From an uncultured euryarchaeote (GTDB taxonomy: Archaea; Thermoplasmatota; Poseidoniia; Poseidoniales; Poseidoniaceae), in contig CALBRH010000054.1 of the NCBI GenBank assembly GCA_937899865.1, forward strand, positions 23,603 through 87,602: a stretch of 64,000 bases of DNA, read 5' to 3'. Each line of letters opens with the position of its first letter. Positions within the stretch are counted from its first letter, which is position 1. A program made the translations under genes and the position numbers. Under the pieces are notes generated by a model. That model did not search any database. It was given only the letters and a program-made list of their open reading frames with translations, and was not told the DNA's origin. Below are positions 13,749-50,068 of this stretch, one piece after another.

Positions 13749-15341
13749 TCAAACTATGATATATGTCAACAATGATGAAGAAATTATTGTTCCGACAAAT
13801 CCAATCACATTGAACACTGTAGATGATGCTGACCTTATCTTTTCTTTGAAAACCGACCTTATTCTTACATTCATCTGTGAACCAGTAAGAAGTTCACCGC
13901 TTACTTCCTCAAGCCTAACACTTACTGTAGCCTCGCCGAATCTTTCTGGCAGCAATGTTTGCCAAGCGACCGTGCCGTCTCTAAGCAAAGCAGACATTAT
14001 TGCAAGAATATCTTCATTCCCCGATTGTGAAAGTGGCACACCAGTATCAGGCCAAATCTTTTCTTCTCCAGGTTCAAGCAAGTATGTCAAAGCTAAGTCA
14101 TGAGGCCTAAAATCAGGCGACTGTACTCTTAGAACAACGGTTCTTGACTCACTTGATAGGTTATGCATATAGGTGAATAAATTTGCTTTGCCATGTACTA
14201 CATTCTCCATATCTACCTCAAAAATTATGTCATCCTTAATTGATTTCCTACCCGAAGCCAAATCTTCCTCTATCCTACCAATCATACGGAAGAACGCAGG
14301 ACATCGGTCTTGTAAGTGATCAATTATGACCAACCATTCTTCAATTGTAAATACTTCATGACTTTTGACATATTCAACTCCGGCTTTGGTAAAAATTTCA
14401 CCAAATTCTGAATCGACTGATGATAAATCAAGACCTTGAGAGTGCTTGTATAGAGTCATCATCATTTTCTCTCTAGCAAATCTTGGATCAACTCCACGTT
14501 TTACATGAGACTCTAGTTCTCCGACAAAGTGTTCATACTCTGATTTCAACAATGGGTCTAACTGAGACTTAACCAAATCTGAGAATACCATGCCAAGAGT
14601 TGAAGGATGAATAGGAGAGTTATATGCATTTAACAAACCTGTCCTCTCAGCCATATTGAAAGTAGATGACCTGGTTGAAATATGCTGTCCTGTAGACAGG
14701 ATTGTCAAAGAAAATGAAAGTGCTAAGAAATTTTTACCCATATCGGTTTGAATGCCATAAAATGCGATTGCTGAAAGAGATAAAATCGATAATAATGCGC
14801 ACATTAGGGAAAAGAAATGTTTAGTAACAGACCGTTTTATTGATTCTTCTAAAGGCTCATAACCATGTAATGATTTAATCGAAAAGTGCTTCGATTGCGC
14901 TGATTTAACCTCTTTTTCAAATGTCCTAATTGTCAAATTCACCCTATGGCGATGCAAAGCTAGAGCAAGTATGTAACCAAGTAAAATTACGAAGGCAAGG
15001 GCAACTAGAATTGTTGAAAAACTCTGCCCCATAGTTGGTTCGATGAAATCTACCCACCAATTTGGCGACGAATTGGCGTAAGCCCAAGCACCGAAGAATG
15101 CTAGAATTGCAAACCCAGGCAAGAATAACAGTAATCTAATTCCAAATGAGATTAATTGCCTATCAAAAGCATACAAAAAGGATTCATTATTCCATTTTGC
15201 TATTTGCTTTAATGATTTAGAACTAATATTCTTCACGGTTTCTGAGATTGTAGATTGATCTTCACTTTCTGTCTTTTCGTTTGAAGATTCTGATGATTTA
15301 TCCTCTATTTCATCTAATTCATCAGGATTCGTATCAGTCAT
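13749..15341 (-). CDS. Hypothetical multi-pass membrane protein
   Basis: Four N-terminal hydrophobic segments, soluble domain, C-terminal TM helix. Confidence 0.75.
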   Translation of the reverse strand: MTDTNPDELDEIEDKSSESSNEKTESEDQSTISETVKNISSKSLKQIAKWNNESFLYAFDRQLISFGIRLLLFLPGFAILAFFGAWAYANSSPNWWVDFIEPTMGQSFSTILVALAFVILLGYILALALHRHRVNLTIRTFEKEVKSAQSKHFSIKSLHGYEPLEESIKRSVTKHFFSLMCALLSILSLSAIAFYGIQTDMGKNFLALSFSLTILSTGQHISTRSSTFNMAERTGLLNAYNSPIHPSTLGMVFSDLVKSQLDPLLKSEYEHFVGELESHVKRGVDPRFAREKMMMTLYKHSQGLDLSSVDSEFGEIFTKAGVEYVKSHEVFTIEEWLVIIDHLQDRCPAFFRMIGRIEEDLASGRKSIKDDIIFEVDMENVVHGKANLFTYMHNLSSESRTVVLRVQSPDFRPHDLALTYLLEPGEEKIWPDTGVPLSQSGNEDILAIMSALLRDGTVAWQTLLPERFGEATVSVRLEEVSGELLTGSQMNVRIRSVFKEKIRSASSTVFNVIGFVGTIISSSLLTYIIV

Positions 15342-42914: not shown

Positions 42915-43739
42915 GTGTCAATGTTGCGCAAGCCGAACACAAAACGCCTTGCGCTAGGCACAATGTTGTTGGTTTTGTTGACACTTCCCGGTATTGCATC
43001 ATCTTATCATGGCGGCATCGGTGGAGAACAATCCAACGCTGGAGAAACCATTGATGATGTAGCTAAAGAAGGATGCCTATGCCATAATGCTGTAGCAGAT
43101 AACACAGTACAAATCATTCTAGATGATGTACCCTATGCTTGGGAATCCGGTCAAACTTACGAAATGAAGCTGCAAATTATTGGCGGCCCAGATGCTGCCA
43201 GCCCATGGACTGCAGGATTCTCAATGAGAGTTTCTGATGGCGTATTGTCTGGAGATAATTTACAAAATTGGGAAGATGACCCTACAACTCTCACTCAAAC
43301 AGAAGCTGCCGCTGGCCAAGATGATAGAATGTGGATTTTATCATGGACTGCCCCGGCTGCTGAAACTGGTGTTGTTGATTTTTGGATCACTGGCAATTCA
43401 GTTAATGGCGACCAAGGACCAGGCCCAGAAGATAAATGGAACCAACTAATCTTCGCTCTTCAAGAGGGTGATGAAAAAACTACTGCTATGGGTTCACGAA
43501 CACTTTTTGCTGGAGATGGTAATGTCAGCCCACCGGAGCCAAAAGAAACCGGTGTTGATCTAAAACACATGGGTGCTGAATTTAGAGCACACGTACTTGG
43601 TTTGTTAGGATTTGGAGCAGTTTTAGCCGTAGTCCTATTCGCTGGCTTAATGCTCAGATACAGTTTTTCATCATCATACAAAGGTAGAAGTAATCAACTG
43701 AGATTGCGTTACAAAATTAGACGAAGAGGTGACCAATAA
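42915..43739 (+). CDS. Membrane-anchored Reeler-like (choice-of-anchor V type) protein with a CxCH motif
   Basis: Signal peptide, GCLCH, P.AWESGQTY, WTAP....G.VDFWI.GN.VNGD, C-terminal TM helix. Confidence 0.7.
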   Translation: MSMLRKPNTKRLALGTMLLVLLTLPGIASSYHGGIGGEQSNAGETIDDVAKEGCLCHNAVADNTVQIILDDVPYAWESGQTYEMKLQIIGGPDAASPWTAGFSMRVSDGVLSGDNLQNWEDDPTTLTQTEAAAGQDDRMWILSWTAPAAETGVVDFWITGNSVNGDQGPGPEDKWNQLIFALQEGDEKTTAMGSRTLFAGDGNVSPPEPKETGVDLKHMGAEFRAHVLGLLGFGAVLAVVLFAGLMLRYSFSSSYKGRSNQLRLRYKIRRRGDQ

Positions 43740-44182
43740 TGGATGACACAATTACCAAACTGTTGCGTGGAGTAGCAAAAGGAGACATTAGTGTCGAAGA
43801 TGCTAGAAAGTCTCTCGAAGATGCATCACTGACTGAAGAACAGATGGACATGGCCATAGACAAAGGGGTGTTCAATAAAGCTGAATTAGGTTCAATTGTT
43901 AGTGCAAAATTAGCACCTTCTGGAGCATCTTATCTAACAATGTTCTTCTTTGTCTGGGGAATATTTTGGTCGTGTTATTGGGTTTTCTCTTTGATTTATG
44001 GCCTAGCCAATGGCTGGGACCAGAGACAACTTGCATTCCATTTGGCAATAGCAACTACGACATTGATTCTTATGGGACTTGTGTATCTTAAATTCATCCT
44101 ACCTGATACAATCATAGTTAAGCATGCAATGAACAAATATATTCCAGAACATCAAAAAGACTGGAAAGAATACAAGGTGTGA
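43739..44182 (+). CDS. Hypothetical two-TM membrane protein
   Basis: Two hydrophobic helices; start overlaps the previous stop and stop overlaps the Rieske start. Confidence 0.75.
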   Translation: MDDTITKLLRGVAKGDISVEDARKSLEDASLTEEQMDMAIDKGVFNKAELGSIVSAKLAPSGASYLTMFFFVWGIFWSCYWVFSLIYGLANGWDQRQLAFHLAIATTTLILMGLVYLKFILPDTIIVKHAMNKYIPEHQKDWKEYKV

Positions 44183-45039
44183 TTTATTTGGCTAGAGAAT
44201 ATGATTTGAAACCTGCACCTTCGCTCAATGATGCTGATTCAGCATTTGGCACTAACAAAATTATCAATCGTCGACAGTTCCTAAAGTACGGATTCAACAC
44301 TGCAACCGGTGTACTTGCCGCATCCTTAGGAGTTCTAGGATTCTCTGCAATCTTGCTGCCACCAGGTGCTGATTCAGGTGGCAGTAACAATGGAGTTATT
44401 TACTGGGCTAAAGGAAGAGAAGATGAAGCATGGTACGGTGCCAAGCATGAATTGCCAATGACTAGACAAGACTTTGTTGATGAAGCTGCAAAATCATCTA
44501 CTGGAACTGCAGGTGCTGCTGGAATTTGGAATGGTGTCCCTGTAATCGTTGTTTATGTTGACCACGAGAAAAACAAAGATACTCCTGTGACAAATGGTAA
44601 AGCAAGATTCCAAATGATGGAAGGATATGATGAAACAGGGAAACGTATTGGGCACTTTGAGGATATGTCTGACTTAGACCCTAGAATATTCCCCTCTGAC
44701 AATCTAGTAATTATCTATGGACGTTGTACCCATCTTTGCTGTATCCCGGGTTGGCAACTGGTTTCGAATTCCTTTACTGATGACTCTTGGACTCCTAACG
44801 GTACTGATGATGGAGGAACCAAATTGTTCTGTATCTGTCACTCTTCAAGATTTGATCCAACCGCTTTGGAAATGAATACAAACAGAAACCGTTCTAACGG
44901 TGCTACATTCAATTATGCTGGAATAAAGGTTGCAGGTGGCCCTGCTCCAGTAGGTTTGCCAATTATTCCAGTACAAATGAATGGCGACAACATAGAGGGA
45001 ATCACAGATTACCTCGACTGGTACACATATTGTGATTGA
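44179..45039 (+). CDS. Rieske iron-sulfur protein
   Basis: Twin-arginine NRRQFLK plus TM helix; box I CTHLCC; box II CICHSSRF. Confidence 0.93.
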   Translation: MIYLAREYDLKPAPSLNDADSAFGTNKIINRRQFLKYGFNTATGVLAASLGVLGFSAILLPPGADSGGSNNGVIYWAKGREDEAWYGAKHELPMTRQDFVDEAAKSSTGTAGAAGIWNGVPVIVVYVDHEKNKDTPVTNGKARFQMMEGYDETGKRIGHFEDMSDLDPRIFPSDNLVIIYGRCTHLCCIPGWQLVSNSFTDDSWTPNGTDDGGTKLFCICHSSRFDPTALEMNTNRNRSNGATFNYAGIKVAGGPAPVGLPIIPVQMNGDNIEGITDYLDWYTYCD

Positions 45040-45048
45040 GGTGAAAAA

Positions 45049-45915
45049 ATGACTACAATGTTCTGGATTCTTTGGTTCTTTATCGCTTTCATCATAGTCT
45101 TAGTTGCCTTTACATTGCGTAAGGAAAATGAAGAGATGCCACGTAGAGAGATTTTGCGTGCTGTTGAATCAACTGGCAAAATGGGCTTTGCAGAACGTTC
45201 ATTTTTGTGGGTGTTTTCTTGGTTGGATACTAGATTTAGAATCCAGGATTACTGGAACATGTCAAAAGGTGCATACTACAATATGCACAGGCAAATGCCA
45301 CTTACTCACGCTGAAAAATATAAACTAAGAATAATTTGGTATTGGTATCCTCTTTACTGCCTTGGTGGTATATCATTCCTATCATTCATCATCTTGGTTA
45401 TTACTGGAACCGTACTAGGAATCTATTATGTCCCAGGAGGAGAAGGTATTCCTTCGCCAGCATATTTGAGTATGCAATATATCATGACAGAATTGCCATT
45501 TGGATATATCATTAGAGCTGTTCACCATTGGGGAACTCACTTCATGGTAGCAAGTGTATTCTTACACATGTGTAGAGTTTACTTTACCGGTGCTTACAGA
45601 AACCCTAGAGAATTAAATTGGTTGATTGGAGTTGCGCTAATGGCACTTACAATTGTGTTTGGTTATTCTGGATATCTTCTACCATGGGATTCTTTGGCAT
45701 ATGGTGCTGCTGTTATTGGAATCAACCTAGCAAACTCAAGTCCATTAGTAGGTAAGCAAATTGCTACACTATTGTTTGGTGGTTCTGCTCTTACTCCACG
45801 TACAGTAACGAGAATGTATTTCATTCATGTATTCATATTGCCTGTAATTGTGACTGGTTTGATTATTGTTCATTTGTTTATTGTTTGGGTACAGGGAATT
45901 GCGGAGCCGCATTGA
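45049..45915 (+). CDS. Cytochrome b6-like subunit (short cytochrome b)
   Basis: YCLGG; helix B His pair (IRAVH...FLH); YLLPWD; helix D His pair (FIH...IVH); ends WVQGIAEPH. Confidence 0.93.
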   Translation: MTTMFWILWFFIAFIIVLVAFTLRKENEEMPRREILRAVESTGKMGFAERSFLWVFSWLDTRFRIQDYWNMSKGAYYNMHRQMPLTHAEKYKLRIIWYWYPLYCLGGISFLSFIILVITGTVLGIYYVPGGEGIPSPAYLSMQYIMTELPFGYIIRAVHHWGTHFMVASVFLHMCRVYFTGAYRNPRELNWLIGVALMALTIVFGYSGYLLPWDSLAYGAAVIGINLANSSPLVGKQIATLLFGGSALTPRTVTRMYFIHVFILPVIVTGLIIVHLFIVWVQGIAEPH

Positions 45916-45931
45916 TATTTGGGTGAATTAA

Positions 45932-48745
45932 ATGGGACTAGTAGAAAATCTTGGTAGAGTTGCTTCATCCTACATGGATGAAAAAGAAAAACTCCAAACT
46001 ACTGCTGAAAAGCGAAAGCGAACTAGAATGGGTCATGGTTTTTGGCCGCATGAGGTTCTTAGAGATGTTTTGATTTTCGCATTTATGGGTGCTGTACTGT
46101 TGTATTACGCATGGATTATTCCACCACCACTTCATGGTGCTGCTGACCCATATGCACAAGCTGGTTTCGTTTTCCCTGATTGGTATGTGTTGTTCTCATA
46201 CGGTTATCTAAGATGGGGTGAATATCTACCTCAATTTACCGTACCTACCGGATTTATTGGAGAGATTTTCGGCCAACCAGTATTCCCATGGAATGCTGCA
46301 TGGTGGGGTGCTGCTCTAACTGGAATCCCAGTAGGAATTTTGGTACTTCCTCCTTTCTTAGGCGGAAGAGAAAAGCGACCTGTTGAAGACCCATGGTTTG
46401 CCGCTGCTGGTGCAGTTTATTTGGCTCACATTTGGTTTATCTCTGTATTTTCAATCAACATTTTCTTGGAATTATATCATAAGAATAGATCCGACTATTG
46501 TAAACTAGATAGTCATGGAGACTTACTTTGTGGTGTAAGAGAACCCTGGTTAGCGGAAGCTTTCAATGCCTTACCCTGGCTAATGACGGGAGTTCTTCTA
46601 TGGATTTGTATTTACTTTGGCGCCCGGATGATTTTTACTAAAGCATGGGGTTCTGCATTCACTCCGGGTCATGCAAAGCAAATTTTAGTAGGTGCACTAA
46701 TTCTTTCCGCTGCTGCTACTGTAGCAACATGGGATGTTTATGACAAAGGATTTTGGGGGGCAAAAGGTCTTGGAACTATTTCGGATTATGGTGAGTTAGA
46801 AGAAATGAGGACTCAGCCAGTTGATGTTCATGTACATGAAACAAATGAATTCACTGACCAATTTGGTTGGTCTGATGATGGCATTGTTCCAACTTCTGCC
46901 TGGATTGATTGGGTAATTTATCAGCCAGGACATCAAGTGATTATTGATTTCGCTGATGCTAATGGCCATCAAGATCCGGCCAATGGAATTAATGCTGTTC
47001 AAGACTCTACTGTTCTAACAGATGCTGATTCTTGGTCTTCCATGGGCACTTTTACAATTACTGAAGATCCTGTTTTATTCCCCGATGGACATCACGAATC
47101 TGTTGATAAAATTGTAACTGACATAGTTTGTGAGCATCGAGCTGAAGAAAGAAAAATCAACGATGTGAAGACTGAAACAATGATTAGTAGCACAATGGTT
47201 GTTTACGATTCGAATGATAAGATTGTATCCGAGTTTACTAACTGTGCAGGAGATTCATTAGAACTATCAGTAGGTACTTACACTTATCAAATGGATGTAG
47301 CAATAACTGGTCCATTAGCACTTAATGACACAATGATGAAAGAAATAAGTCTTGAGATTAATGCCTTCCAGCCACTACTATTGTGGTCAAGTTCCGCACC
47401 TGCATCACTTGAAGGAAAGTCCGTCAATCTAAGCAATAGTGCAGAAATGGCTCTTGGAGGAACAAGTTTTGGCCAACTTGACAATCCTAGTTACCATATG
47501 AATCCTAAGAGCTTAGATGCTAAATTGATTTATGCCATGTTTATTCCTTGTCTAACCTTTGGTGCAATGGTATTCATTCTCTTAAGGTCAATGGCAAGGG
47601 GCTATGAATTTGAAATGAACAAATGTTACGGTTGTGACCTTTGTGATGATGCTTGTCCTGTTCGTCTATTCAACGGTGGAGACAAATTGAATATTATTTA
47701 CAACTCATGGAATAATGAAGATGACGGTGTTCCTATGTATTCCTGTCTAACTTGTACTGCATGTACTAATGCATGTCCACAATTAGTTGATTATGACTCA
47801 TATGTTGACATTCGAAGAGGTTTGATAGTTGGAGGGCCTCAGGCTGAAATTCCTCACACTGTACTTCAAGCAGTCCTTGCTGCAGAAGCAGAAGAAGATG
47901 CTAACAGTGATTTCATTCCTGTCGAGGATTATCCAATCGAATCTAATGTAGGATACTACCCTGGATGTGTTGACTACTTAGACCAAGAAATGGTTTTCTC
48001 TCATGTTAATGAAGGCGAGATGAACCTAGGAGATGCAACAACTTCAGCATTCACTCTCTTCGAGGCGATAGACTTAGACGTTTCTTACTTGGGAAGAGAT
48101 TTCCTAAAGTGTTGTGGCCATGACCAAAAGTGGCAAGGACTCACTGAAGTATTTGAAAAGTTGAAAGCTTACAACCAAAAGAAAATTCAGCAATCTGGAA
48201 TTGATACCTTGGTATCCTCCTGTGCAGAGTGTTTCAGAACTTTTGCTAGAGATTATGAACTCGAAGATATCAAAGTCATGCATACTACTGAATTCTTGAT
48301 CGAACAAGGATTTGATATGAATCTAAAGGCAGAGGAAGAGACTACTGTAACTTACCATGACCCTTGTAGACTAGGTAGGCAGATGGGCGTTTACGAAGAA
48401 CCACGTGAACTGATAGAATCTGTTGAAGGTGTAAGTATTGTAGAGATGGAACACAGTGGCGAAGATGCAATGTGCTGTGGAGTATCAAGTATGATGTCAT
48501 GTAATGAGAATGCAAGAGCTCTACGTGTTGCAAGGATGGAAGAAATCAAATCAACTGGCGCAGATACAATGCTAACGGCTTGCCCTAAGTGTGTTACACA
48601 CTTTGAATGTTTGAAATTTGAAGGTGATGAAAGATATGCTGACATTAAGATTCTTGATGTAGTTTCTTTCCTTGCTCAACAAATTAACGAAAAGAAGGAA
48701 AATATTGGACAAACATCTGTTCCAGTAATAGAAACTGAAGCCTGA
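45932..48745 (+). CDS. Fusion: cytochrome b subunit IV (PetD/QcrC-like), extracellular domain, and HdrD/GlpC-like 2x[4Fe-4S]+2xCCG domain
   Basis: FWPHE, PDWY; CYGCDLCDDACP, CLTCTACTNACP; YYPGC, KCCG, SSCAEC; YHDPC, MCCG, TACPKC. Confidence 0.9.
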   Translation: MGLVENLGRVASSYMDEKEKLQTTAEKRKRTRMGHGFWPHEVLRDVLIFAFMGAVLLYYAWIIPPPLHGAADPYAQAGFVFPDWYVLFSYGYLRWGEYLPQFTVPTGFIGEIFGQPVFPWNAAWWGAALTGIPVGILVLPPFLGGREKRPVEDPWFAAAGAVYLAHIWFISVFSINIFLELYHKNRSDYCKLDSHGDLLCGVREPWLAEAFNALPWLMTGVLLWICIYFGARMIFTKAWGSAFTPGHAKQILVGALILSAAATVATWDVYDKGFWGAKGLGTISDYGELEEMRTQPVDVHVHETNEFTDQFGWSDDGIVPTSAWIDWVIYQPGHQVIIDFADANGHQDPANGINAVQDSTVLTDADSWSSMGTFTITEDPVLFPDGHHESVDKIVTDIVCEHRAEERKINDVKTETMISSTMVVYDSNDKIVSEFTNCAGDSLELSVGTYTYQMDVAITGPLALNDTMMKEISLEINAFQPLLLWSSSAPASLEGKSVNLSNSAEMALGGTSFGQLDNPSYHMNPKSLDAKLIYAMFIPCLTFGAMVFILLRSMARGYEFEMNKCYGCDLCDDACPVRLFNGGDKLNIIYNSWNNEDDGVPMYSCLTCTACTNACPQLVDYDSYVDIRRGLIVGGPQAEIPHTVLQAVLAAEAEEDANSDFIPVEDYPIESNVGYYPGCVDYLDQEMVFSHVNEGEMNLGDATTSAFTLFEAIDLDVSYLGRDFLKCCGHDQKWQGLTEVFEKLKAYNQKKIQQSGIDTLVSSCAECFRTFARDYELEDIKVMHTTEFLIEQGFDMNLKAEEETTVTYHDPCRLGRQMGVYEEPRELIESVEGVSIVEMEHSGEDAMCCGVSSMMSCNENARALRVARMEEIKSTGADTMLTACPKCVTHFECLKFEGDERYADIKILDVVSFLAQQINEKKENIGQTSVPVIETEA

Positions 48746-49060
48746 TTACTTAGACTTCTTTTTTGGTTTTTTCTTTGGCTTTTCTTCGGGATTACCACTC
48801 ATACCAAGAATCTCATAGTTAGAAGGGAATAGTGCTATGATAACACCACCTAGCAATGCCATCAATCCCCAGAAAAACATCTGTCTAACAAATAGCATCT
48901 CCAAAGCTATGACACAAAGAAGCAATCCACCAATATTTGAAGTCCAAACTAATGTTTTGAATGTGGAAAGAGAAACTCCTGTTGTCCCTGGTTTTCGGTA
49001 AGGGCCAAACTCACCGCCAAAGCGTTGTGCATCGTTTTTGGCTTTGCCCTTGCTACTCAT
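48746..49060 (-). CDS. Small two-TM hypothetical protein
   Basis: Two hydrophobic helices and a Lys-rich tail; in the minus-strand operon. Confidence 0.65.
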   Translation of the reverse strand: MSSKGKAKNDAQRFGGEFGPYRKPGTTGVSLSTFKTLVWTSNIGGLLLCVIALEMLFVRQMFFWGLMALLGGVIIALFPSNYEILGMSGNPEEKPKKKPKKKSK

Positions 49061-49064
49061 TTAA

Positions 49065-49397
49065 TCACCTATCAATCATTGAAATAGCATCTGTAGGACA
49101 AGCAAGAACACATAGCCTACATCCTGTACAAGCATCTCTGATAATTTTTGCTTTACGATTAGATTCTACATTCATCAATGGACTTAGCATAGGAACCTTG
49201 TAGAGTTCAATCGCATTATCATCGCAAACAATGTCACATTGATCACAACCGATACATAATCGCTCTTGAACAAAAGCAACAGTATTCTCGCCTCCTTTCA
49301 ATGATGAATGTTGAACACTACGCTGACGATTTAACGAAGTTCTAATACGCAAGGCTTCTTTTTCCCTGCGCTTTTTCAAGTCCTCATTTGATGTCAT
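49065..49397 (-). CDS. 2x[4Fe-4S] ferredoxin-like protein
   Basis: CIGCDQCDIVC and CTGCRLCVLACP. Confidence 0.88.
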   Translation of the reverse strand: MTSNEDLKKRREKEALRIRTSLNRQRSVQHSSLKGGENTVAFVQERLCIGCDQCDIVCDDNAIELYKVPMLSPLMNVESNRKAKIIRDACTGCRLCVLACPTDAISMIDR

Positions 49398-50068
49398 TCA
49401 TACACCCCGACGGAGGCCTTCTCTTCAAACCTAACGACTGTCATATTGACTAATAAGTCACCTAAACAATAGAATGCACCAACTAATAAAGGGGGATTCC
49501 AAGCGGTCAATCCAGTCCATGGCACCTCATTTGCCCAAGTCCAATTGCCTAATTGTGTACCAACTATTTCCATAACTAATGCTGCCCAAGCCATTGAAGC
49601 ATACAAACAAGGTTGTGGGCCATATTTGGTAAATGCAAGTACCATGATTAGCAATAGTGTGGCTGAAGTATCAGTTCCATCCCATACCCCGAATGCAACC
49701 ATCGGAATGAATGGAAGCAGAATTGGCATGGCTAACTTTTGATCAAACTTACTCGCTATTATTCTGCCTAAATCGAATAGGAAATAGTGGCCTGCGGGAA
49801 CAAATAATGGCATTAATCCTCTTTGATATTCGTAAATTTTCCAAACCTCACTAAAGAATAACTCCATTGGGGTAGCAAAAGCAAGAACTGTCAACATCTC
49901 TATTCTTTCTTTACGATTGGTAGACTTGTAAATATAGCCAAATACTGACCAACACCAAATGTTCACTGGCCATTCTGCCATGTTATCAGGCATTAGTCCG
50001 CCAAATGCAGTGGCAGATACCCACAACCCTACAAGGATGGTTAGTGAGTATAACCATGCTCTGCCCAT
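49394..50068 (-). CDS. Hypothetical polytopic membrane protein
   Basis: Six to seven hydrophobic segments; 4-nt overlap with the ferredoxin gene. Confidence 0.75.
   Translation of the reverse strand: MGRAWLYSLTILVGLWVSATAFGGLMPDNMAEWPVNIWCWSVFGYIYKSTNRKERIEMLTVLAFATPMELFFSEVWKIYEYQRGLMPLFVPAGHYFLFDLGRIIASKFDQKLAMPILLPFIPMVAFGVWDGTDTSATLLLIMVLAFTKYGPQPCLYASMAWAALVMEIVGTQLGNWTWANEVPWTGLTAWNPPLLVGAFYCLGDLLVNMTVVRFEEKASVGVYE

Follow-up and report, generated by a model that had tools for sequence, protein, structure and literature searches.

What does an iron–sulfur module of the heterodisulfide reductase (Hdr) type do on a subunit of a respiratory Rieske/cytochrome b complex, and in which direction would electrons pass through it? 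The question is raised by a 64,000-nucleotide stretch of DNA (the window) from an uncultured Poseidoniales archaeon (assembly GCA_937899865.1, contig CALBRH010000054.1), in which the last gene of a co-directional operon, at positions 45932–48745 (+), is an uninterrupted open reading frame (ORF) of 937 residues that joins a cytochrome b subunit IV to an HdrD-type module. This ORF had been singled out in a preliminary description, whose length and motif coordinates all match the ORF list and the motif positions. The reading that we favor, with moderate confidence, is that the module is an electron port on the negative (n) side of the membrane that leads into the heme bH/ci–Qn site, probably for ferredoxin-level donors. 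At issue is the only respiratory complex III of an abundant group of ocean archaea, Marine Group II (MGII); textbook bc1 and b6f complexes have no such ferredoxin entry.

The fusion protein adopts a modular layout. Residues 1–185 (45932–46486) constitute the subunit IV, or cytochrome b C-terminal, domain, composed of helices E, F, and G, with the PDWY motif of the Qo site, as assigned by comparison of a family profile with the Protein Data Bank (PDB); the family domain itself spans residues 30–185. An outer loop with conserved C190 and C200 and two extra transmembrane helices follow (residues 186–271; 46487–46744); this segment is defined by hydropathy and is seen only in the Poseidoniales form. 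Next come an acidic outer domain with a β-sandwich core (residues 272–529; 46745–47518), delineated from an AlphaFold2 (AF2) model and its structural matches, and a sixth transmembrane helix (residues 530–554; 47519–47593), which would bring the chain back to the cytoplasm and which aligns with the fourth helix of a set of shorter fusions. The C-terminal part comprises an HdrC-like 2×[4Fe-4S] dicluster domain (residues 555–625; 47594–47806), recognized by Pfam families Fer4_8/9/10 and by cysteine conservation, and two HdrB-like CCG domains with five cysteines each (residues 626–925; 47807–48706), recognized by Pfam CCG, conservation, and Foldseek.

The identity of the N-terminal half is visible at the level of the family. 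With the single sequence of the fusion, the match to b6f subunit IV is weak (7r0w_J, E = 0.1), and residues 1–280 alone give no Pfam match even at E = 10. A profile built from 36 family members (alignment A5) matches PDB cytochrome b residues 241–379, which comprise helices E–G with the PEWY motif, at E = 8e-10, and b6f subunit IV in the PDB at E = 1e-7; one of the shorter fusions, P0132, has a precomputed PF00032 match. The fusion carries FWPHE at residue 37 and PDWY at residues 82–85, and across the family the P, D, and W of the latter motif are invariant and the Y is at least 90% conserved. Profile similarity, the PEWY-type Qo motif, and gene context together place this half in the PF00032 family. 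The whole genome, which is 91% complete, holds one match to the A5 subunit IV profile and one PF00033 cytochrome b match. With a sole cytochrome b and a sole subunit IV available, the complex has to use the fusion.

The C-terminal half has the hallmarks of an HdrD/HdrBC-type protein: two CxxCxxCxxxCP motifs, at residues 565–576 (47624–47659) and 605–616 (47744–47779), followed by two five-cysteine CCG domains with CCG motifs at residues 727 (nucleotide 48110) and 848 (nucleotide 48473). Pfam places a 4Fe-4S dicluster domain at residues 561–617 (Fer4_8/9/10) and two CCG domains, PF02754, in two stretches with E = 7e-23. In place of a NarI-like cytochrome b (HdrE), the module has the Rieske/cytochrome b6 complex as its membrane partner, and no full HdrA was matched in the source genome. 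In an alignment of 132 sequences reaching down to ~30% identity, the eight cubane cysteines are invariant or at least 90% conserved, and the two CCG sets, C679/727/728/764/767 and C812/848/849/884/887, are each at least 90% conserved; all 18 ligand cysteines are retained across families and in a second phylum at 30–40% identity. The spacings, CC-X35-CxxC and C-X35-CC-X34-CxxC, fit the HdrB/HdrD signature. The best NCBIfam match to the module is TfrB (E = 7e-33), followed by LdhH, GlpC, DsrK, and GlcF, and the closest solved structure is Mycobacterium smegmatis EtfD (9ojn; phmmer E = 1e-22, Foldseek E = 7e-14), with LutA and HdrB next in Foldseek. Since CCG is kept in both domains and a glutamate, Glu766, stands at the position of the EtfD ligand His583, the module is expected from its sequence to hold two HdrB-type non-cubane clusters in addition to two cubane [4Fe-4S] clusters. 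The family profile and the Pfam, NCBIfam, and Foldseek results thus agree with the preliminary description in treating the protein as a subunit IV fused to an HdrD-like Fe–S/CCG module.

Hydropathy resolves six transmembrane segments, at residues ~45–65, 122–144, 156–180, 213–235, 250–268, and 532–553. The density of lysine plus arginine is high at the N terminus (0.20) and in the F–G loop (0.27) and low in the ef loop (0.02) and in the 263-residue outer domain (0.05). Subunit IV begins on the n side, and Fe–S clusters are assembled in the cytoplasm. Taken jointly, the six helices, the charge bias, and the n-side start of subunit IV support an N-in/C-in topology, with the Fe–S/CCG part predicted to be cytoplasmic. 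The same placement had been proposed earlier from helix counting, and the topology check leaves it in force.

The joining of the two halves is widespread. More than 100 independent full-length fusion clusters were found at 59–91% identity, and in a sample of 401 Thermoplasmatota genomes, a fusion of ~930–968 residues is present in all 94 other Poseidoniales genomes, which fall into two families (57/57 and 37/37), with an open frame wherever the contig is complete. By the names given in the sources, the fusion occurs in Poseidoniaceae and in Thalassarchaeaceae, both of the Poseidoniales. Because so many independent full-length clusters and genomes carry the junction, it is not an assembly artifact. 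In a scan of genome contigs with an alignment of the family, A1, at least 596 species-level contigs carry a relative, and almost all are from Poseidoniales: the 80 that were kept come from this order or from unresolved archaeal metagenome-assembled genomes, except for one titled Salinimicrobium sp.

Related arrangements are observed outside these two families. A sister family in the same class, taken to be Marine Group III (MGIII), has a split form in 10/10 genomes, in which subunit IV, the helix, and the dicluster domain are encoded by one gene and the CCG domains by the next. Three further families, f22, f24, and f30, have shorter fusions of 580–790 residues. Another shorter fusion, P0132, comes from a genome, G401, of a phylum with only two species in the collection, and a word-based search with the P0132 N terminus retrieved seven proteins only. 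Because the phylum of P0132 is separate, the design extends beyond Thermoplasmatota. The shorter fusions pass from subunit IV through one helix to the same module, and in alignment A1 they lack the two extra transmembrane helices and the outer domain. The Poseidoniales form is therefore derived, having gained these parts by insertion.

All lineages examined share the gene order Rieske, cytochrome b6, fusion, and in each of them redox genes come next. In f22, f24, and G401, an HdrA-like flavoprotein and FlpD/MvhD lie downstream, and G401 also has HdrC-like and HdrB-like genes and multiheme cytochromes by the fusion; in f30 and MGIII, a polyferredoxin is found downstream. The presence of the shorter fusions beside HdrA-like and MvhD proteins suggests an origin as a quinone-linked Hdr-type complex, the flavoprotein of which was apparently trimmed later, in the marine lineages that are aerobic, until its ferredoxin domain alone was left. 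As a separate observation, the operon of G401 is flanked by multiheme c-type cytochromes (L012:4808-5533 and 13780-14955), which together with its HdrC-, HdrB-, and HdrA-like genes and FlpD suggests a respiration that is anaerobic and perhaps linked to metals or sulfur.

The conserved neighbor of the fusion operon in Poseidoniales, also present in the window, encodes a 2×[4Fe-4S] ferredoxin of 110 residues (49065–49397, −; Pfam Fer4_21, E = 2e-13) with a conserved basic N-terminal helix. Of the 67 Poseidoniales loci with enough flank, 59 have this ferredoxin no more than 1.5 kb past the end of the fusion gene. It travels with a small membrane protein of 104 residues (48746–49060, −), a possible accessory subunit, which is present in 73/80 loci and always adjoins the ferredoxin on the same strand. 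The pair is inverted in the source lineage and directly follows the fusion in the same direction in many Poseidoniales; in the inverted arrangement (48746–50068, −), a 224-residue membrane protein accompanies it. When a 1010-residue HdrA-like protein was compared with the source genome, the single match was the 110-residue ferredoxin, which aligns with HdrA-like residues 920–989 at 44% identity; FlpD/MvhD was not found in this genome (91% complete). The ferredoxin can accordingly be read as the surviving C-terminal domain of an ancestral HdrA-like flavoprotein partner.

Complex prediction points to contact between the two proteins. For the module with the ferredoxin, the interface score ipSAE is 0.80, compared with 0.00 for the best control; the mark used for ipSAE is reached by 58/80 solved complexes and by 2/110 mismatched pairs, a calibration that holds roughly, since own alignments were used here. 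At least 83% of the contacts agree among the three docking runs, and the predicted local distance difference test score (pLDDT) of the partner is at least 77. The predicted interface is formed by the N-terminal helix and the cluster loops of the ferredoxin and by residues ~639–723 and 857–899 of the fusion, so that the ferredoxin is predicted to dock on the CCG part of the module.

The membrane partner of the fusion is a b6-type cytochrome b of 288 residues, encoded directly upstream (45049–45915, +; Pfam Cytochrome_B, E = 2e-42; NCBIfam cytochrome b6, E = 2e-59). It has four heme histidines (His 159/160, 173, 260, and 275) and a YCLGG motif at residue 103, the cysteine of which is expected from the motif to bind heme ci/cn. 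The first cubane motif of the fusion begins 12 residues past its last transmembrane helix, which would place the first cubane cluster at the membrane surface. In EtfD, electrons pass from the CCG clusters by way of two cubanes to a heme b on the cytoplasmic side and then to menaquinone, and the cubane cluster D4 lies ~7 Å from the heme (PMC13083937). HdrDE follows the same plan. By analogy with both, the membrane-proximal cubane of the fusion would lie beside the cytoplasmic-side heme, here bH/ci of cytochrome b6. It is this position of the cubane, together with bH/ci being the sole hemes on that side, that leads to the proposal of an n-side port.

In the proposed mechanism, low-potential cytoplasmic electrons would enter via the ferredoxin subunit and run down the Fe–S wire to the Qn site, where quinone would be reduced, and the resulting quinol would then be oxidized at Qo by the same complex. 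The cytoplasmic face would carry a wire of up to six Fe–S clusters, four in the module and two in the ferredoxin. Likely sources of electrons would be ferredoxin reduced by 2-oxoacid oxidoreductases or, in the anaerobic relatives, the HdrA-like flavoprotein. We favor entry, rather than exit, as the direction of flow because the conserved partner is a ferredoxin domain, or a bifurcating-type flavoprotein in relatives; because the b hemes could not reduce ferredoxin; and because the source genome encodes a POR-type 2-oxoacid:ferredoxin oxidoreductase, whereas NuoF (PF01512) was not found in it (91% complete), and complex I may lack its NADH-binding module. The preliminary description had proposed a direct wiring between the Rieske/cytochrome b complex and a redox module in the cytoplasm. 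The sole subunit IV, the conserved redox neighbors, and the predicted docking strengthen that proposal, and electron transfer between the clusters and heme bH/ci, with its direction, is the part that is inferred.

Several points weigh against an n-side entry port. The proximity of the Fe–S module to heme bH/ci is drawn by analogy, and the CYGCDLC motif of the fusion offers no equivalent of R306, the arginine through which EtfD contacts the heme propionate. The docking score could partly reflect model memory of HdrC–HdrB-type contacts. Neither CCG motif lacks a cysteine, a state shared with the catalytic disulfide reductases, so that a thiol/disulfide reaction is conceivable. The complex I of MGII could itself oxidize ferredoxin, in which case a second entry route is not strictly needed, and the direction of flow is argued on thermodynamics alone.

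The complete CCG motifs are the starting point of the alternative that survives best, in which electrons leave through the module. The low-potential electron from Qo would pass through bL to bH/ci and on to the Fe–S wire, and the CCG clusters would hand electrons to a disulfide in the cytoplasm or to some other acceptor, making the complex a quinol-driven disulfide reductase similar to HdrDE. Both CCG motifs keep five cysteines, as in catalytic HdrB and HdrD and unlike EtfD; in HdrDE, electrons flow from a membrane heme to the CCG clusters; and relatives of the G401 type encode HdrB-, HdrC-, and HdrA-like proteins and MvhD by the fusion. Nevertheless, exit appears unlikely. There is no known candidate disulfide substrate in aerobic MGII, the conserved partner is a ferredoxin, which is beyond reach of the b-heme potentials, and transfer from the positive (p) side to the n side already opposes the membrane potential. 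The gshA gene that neighbors the operon in the window is absent from many Poseidoniales loci (it lies within 4 kb in 32 of the 56 with enough flank), and adjacency is therefore not conserved. A link of the module to a thiol substrate through gshA/asnB was rejected for that reason and since the ferredoxin follows the fusion directly in many genomes.

A second alternative takes its cue from the closest solved structure, M. smegmatis EtfD, and has an electron-transfer flavoprotein (ETF) docking on the module and feeding electrons from β-oxidation into the complex. The genome does encode EtfAB and an acyl-CoA dehydrogenase. It also encodes, however, a separate and closer EtfD orthologue of 696 residues (E = 2e-96 to 9ojn) with its own NarI-like membrane domain, and ETF docking on the fusion was rejected on account of that orthologue. 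The fusion itself differs from EtfD in keeping CCG at residues 727–729, in having Glu766 rather than the EtfD CTG/His variant, and in using subunit IV as its membrane part, and no etf genes lie near the operon in any lineage examined, all of which leaves this alternative improbable. The EtfD orthologue is located at C25:41840-43930 (L009:3841-5931) and comprises a dicluster and two CCG domains, with EtfAB and the acyl-CoA dehydrogenase on contig C22; it suggests an EtfD-type ETF:quinone route in MGII in its own right.

CCG proteins anchor SdhAB in Sulfolobus-type enzymes, and a third alternative is that SdhAB is anchored on the CCG module, similar to SdhE in type E enzymes and TfrB in thiol:fumarate reductase, to give a fused complex II–III. 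TfrB is the best NCBIfam match to the module, but it scores 114 bits relative to a cutoff of 385 bits, and the match extends over no more than the C-terminal two thirds of the model. The sdhAB operon lies elsewhere and has its own multi-helix, histidine-rich membrane protein of 275 residues upstream and a DoxX-like protein downstream, and no sdh genes are found near the fusion in any lineage examined. With a membrane anchor in the sdh operon and a TfrB score so far below the cutoff, SdhAB docking was rejected and is very improbable. The 275-residue protein that precedes sdhAB (contig C57, L008:2809-3636) has no Pfam match and is perhaps an unusual complex II anchor. Finally, that the module is a structural relic devoid of a redox role, an idea to which the indirect nature of the functional evidence for electron transfer lends some room, is hardly credible given that the 18 ligand cysteines are conserved across families and in a second phylum and that redox partner genes are co-conserved.

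The outer domain of the fusion, ~260 residues, is predicted by AF2 with a pLDDT of 89 and a predicted template modeling score of 0.83 and is markedly acidic (42 D+E compared with 13 K+R). In structure comparison it comes closest to sandwiches of the PPC/collagen-binding and GOLD types (Z = 9.7, root mean square deviation 2.7 Å, 93 aligned residues). The structure searches with this domain returned generic β-sandwiches only, with no cofactor-binding family or redox motif recognized, and the 937-residue fusion contains no CxxCH. Outer domains are also seen elsewhere in the wider family: in f30 (the context of protein P0130), cytochrome b6 itself carries a large outer domain with Big_5 (758 residues in all), and the subunit IV fusion (789 residues) is extended at its N terminus by additional membrane sequence. 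Outer domains have thus been added to different subunits in different lineages.

Upstream of cytochrome b6, the operon encodes the Rieske [2Fe-2S] protein (44179–45039, +; 286 residues; NCBIfam Rieske_proteo, E = 1.4e-11), with the motif CTHLCC...CICHS and a signal resembling that of the twin-arginine translocation pathway. It is preceded by a small two-helix membrane protein (43739–44182, +; 147 residues) with a weak Pfam match to DUF7318, a probable accessory subunit that is conserved in 66/80 loci; in the P0130 context, the corresponding gene bears a DUF7318 annotation. The first of these genes (42915–43739, +) encodes a Reeler-like, choice-of-anchor-V exported protein of 274 residues with a signal peptide and a C-terminal transmembrane anchor (NCBIfam choice_anch_V, E = 5e-23), a candidate outer-side subunit. 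It is co-linear with the operon in 63/80 Poseidoniales loci and is found upstream in MGIII and f30 as well. Its matches in the ESM Atlas are proteins of its own kind only, with no structure. In cytochrome f, the heme is ligated by the amino group of Tyr1, and residues 21–25 form CxxCH. After its predicted cleavage site (…ASS|YHGG), the Reeler-like protein would begin with tyrosine and has C-L-C-H ~24–27 residues on, a spacing that recalls cytochrome f, although the motif is CxCH and not CxxCH.

If the n-side port is correct, it changes the picture of energy metabolism in MGII, the complex III of which is treated in current models as an incomplete bc1. Ferredoxin from peptide and 2-oxoacid catabolism could then enter the quinone pool at Qn. 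The system would also offer a natural test of whether heme ci/cn takes electrons from the n-side aqueous phase, a question that is still open for the chloroplast b6f complex. Tentatively, a hard-wired ferredoxin:quinone reductase working via heme ci at Qn might represent the long-debated ferredoxin-to-b6f route of cyclic electron flow in a natural form that a covalent link has made permanent, and in the anaerobic relatives with HdrA-like and MvhD proteins the same scaffold might couple two bifurcations, a flavin-based one in the cytoplasm and a quinone-based one in the membrane, within a single machine.

The pieces of this arrangement, a split b6-type Rieske/cytochrome b complex and HdrD modules on membrane cytochromes, are each known; their combination is not described in the literature that was found. 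Published work treats MGII as aerobic heterotrophs. Tully (2019) notes for them only a cytochrome b, a Rieske protein, and an RnfB, and the literature retrieved on MGII, Poseidoniales, HdrD, and Rieske proteins contains no description of the fusion, the MGII genome papers being silent on Hdr. The closest precedent comes from the same phylum: in Angelarchaeales, Diamond et al. (2022) noted hdrD-like and rnfB-like genes beside complex III and suggested ferredoxin entry (PMC9038741). The association of complex III with HdrD-like and ferredoxin-like proteins is the same as that seen here, whereas the treatment there is one sentence, which does not take up the fusion to subunit IV or its topology, distribution, and partners. 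The earlier impression that the architecture is not one of the characterized complexes holds, this mention of adjacent genes being the only one found. In Methanomassiliicoccales, which also belong to Thermoplasmatota, HdrD, in the absence of HdrE, is proposed to work with a ferredoxin-oxidizing Fpo-like complex (as cited in bioRxiv 10.1101/2020.03.09.984617); the partner there is complex I-like, HdrD is not fused to it, and the substrate reduced is CoM-S-S-CoB. The "unusual Rieske/cytb complex" of Methanoperedens is a different arrangement.

Among characterized complexes, b6f and the b6c-type complexes of Firmicutes and heliobacteria share with the Poseidoniales complex a Rieske protein, a b6-type cytochrome b with the YCLGG cysteine (heme ci/cn), and a separate subunit IV bearing a motif of the PEWY type (PDWY here, which is also the Bacillus form). 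The fusion extends this subunit IV by three further transmembrane helices, an outer β-sandwich, and an HdrD module with four clusters in the cytoplasm. Bacillus QcrC joins subunit IV to an outer c-type cytochrome; the fusion described here, by comparison, lacks CxxCH and carries its redox module on the inside. Similar to the fusion, HdrDE of Methanosarcina, as well as DsrMK, TmcBC, and HmcEF, places a cytoplasmic HdrD-type module with two cubane and two CCG clusters on a b-type cytochrome of the membrane, through which electrons are exchanged with a quinone or phenazine pool, and HdrDE has the full five-cysteine CCG motifs. The main differences from HdrDE are that the membrane partner is Rieske/cytochrome b6 rather than the NarI-like diheme HdrE or DsrM, that the module is covalently fused to subunit IV, and that the source organism is an aerobic non-methanogen. 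EtfD (PDB 9ojn) is the nearest structural parallel in an aerobe: in a single polypeptide, transmembrane helices precede a dicluster and two CCG domains, which serve as a wire between a donor in the cytoplasm and the heme and quinone of the membrane. The heme b domain is part of EtfD itself and is NarI-like, and in EtfD a threonine replaces one CCG cysteine and a histidine ligand is used, giving a linear [3Fe-4S] cluster (PMC13083937), whereas the fusion keeps CCG, with glutamate at the histidine position, and has the Rieske/cytochrome b6 complex as its membrane partner.

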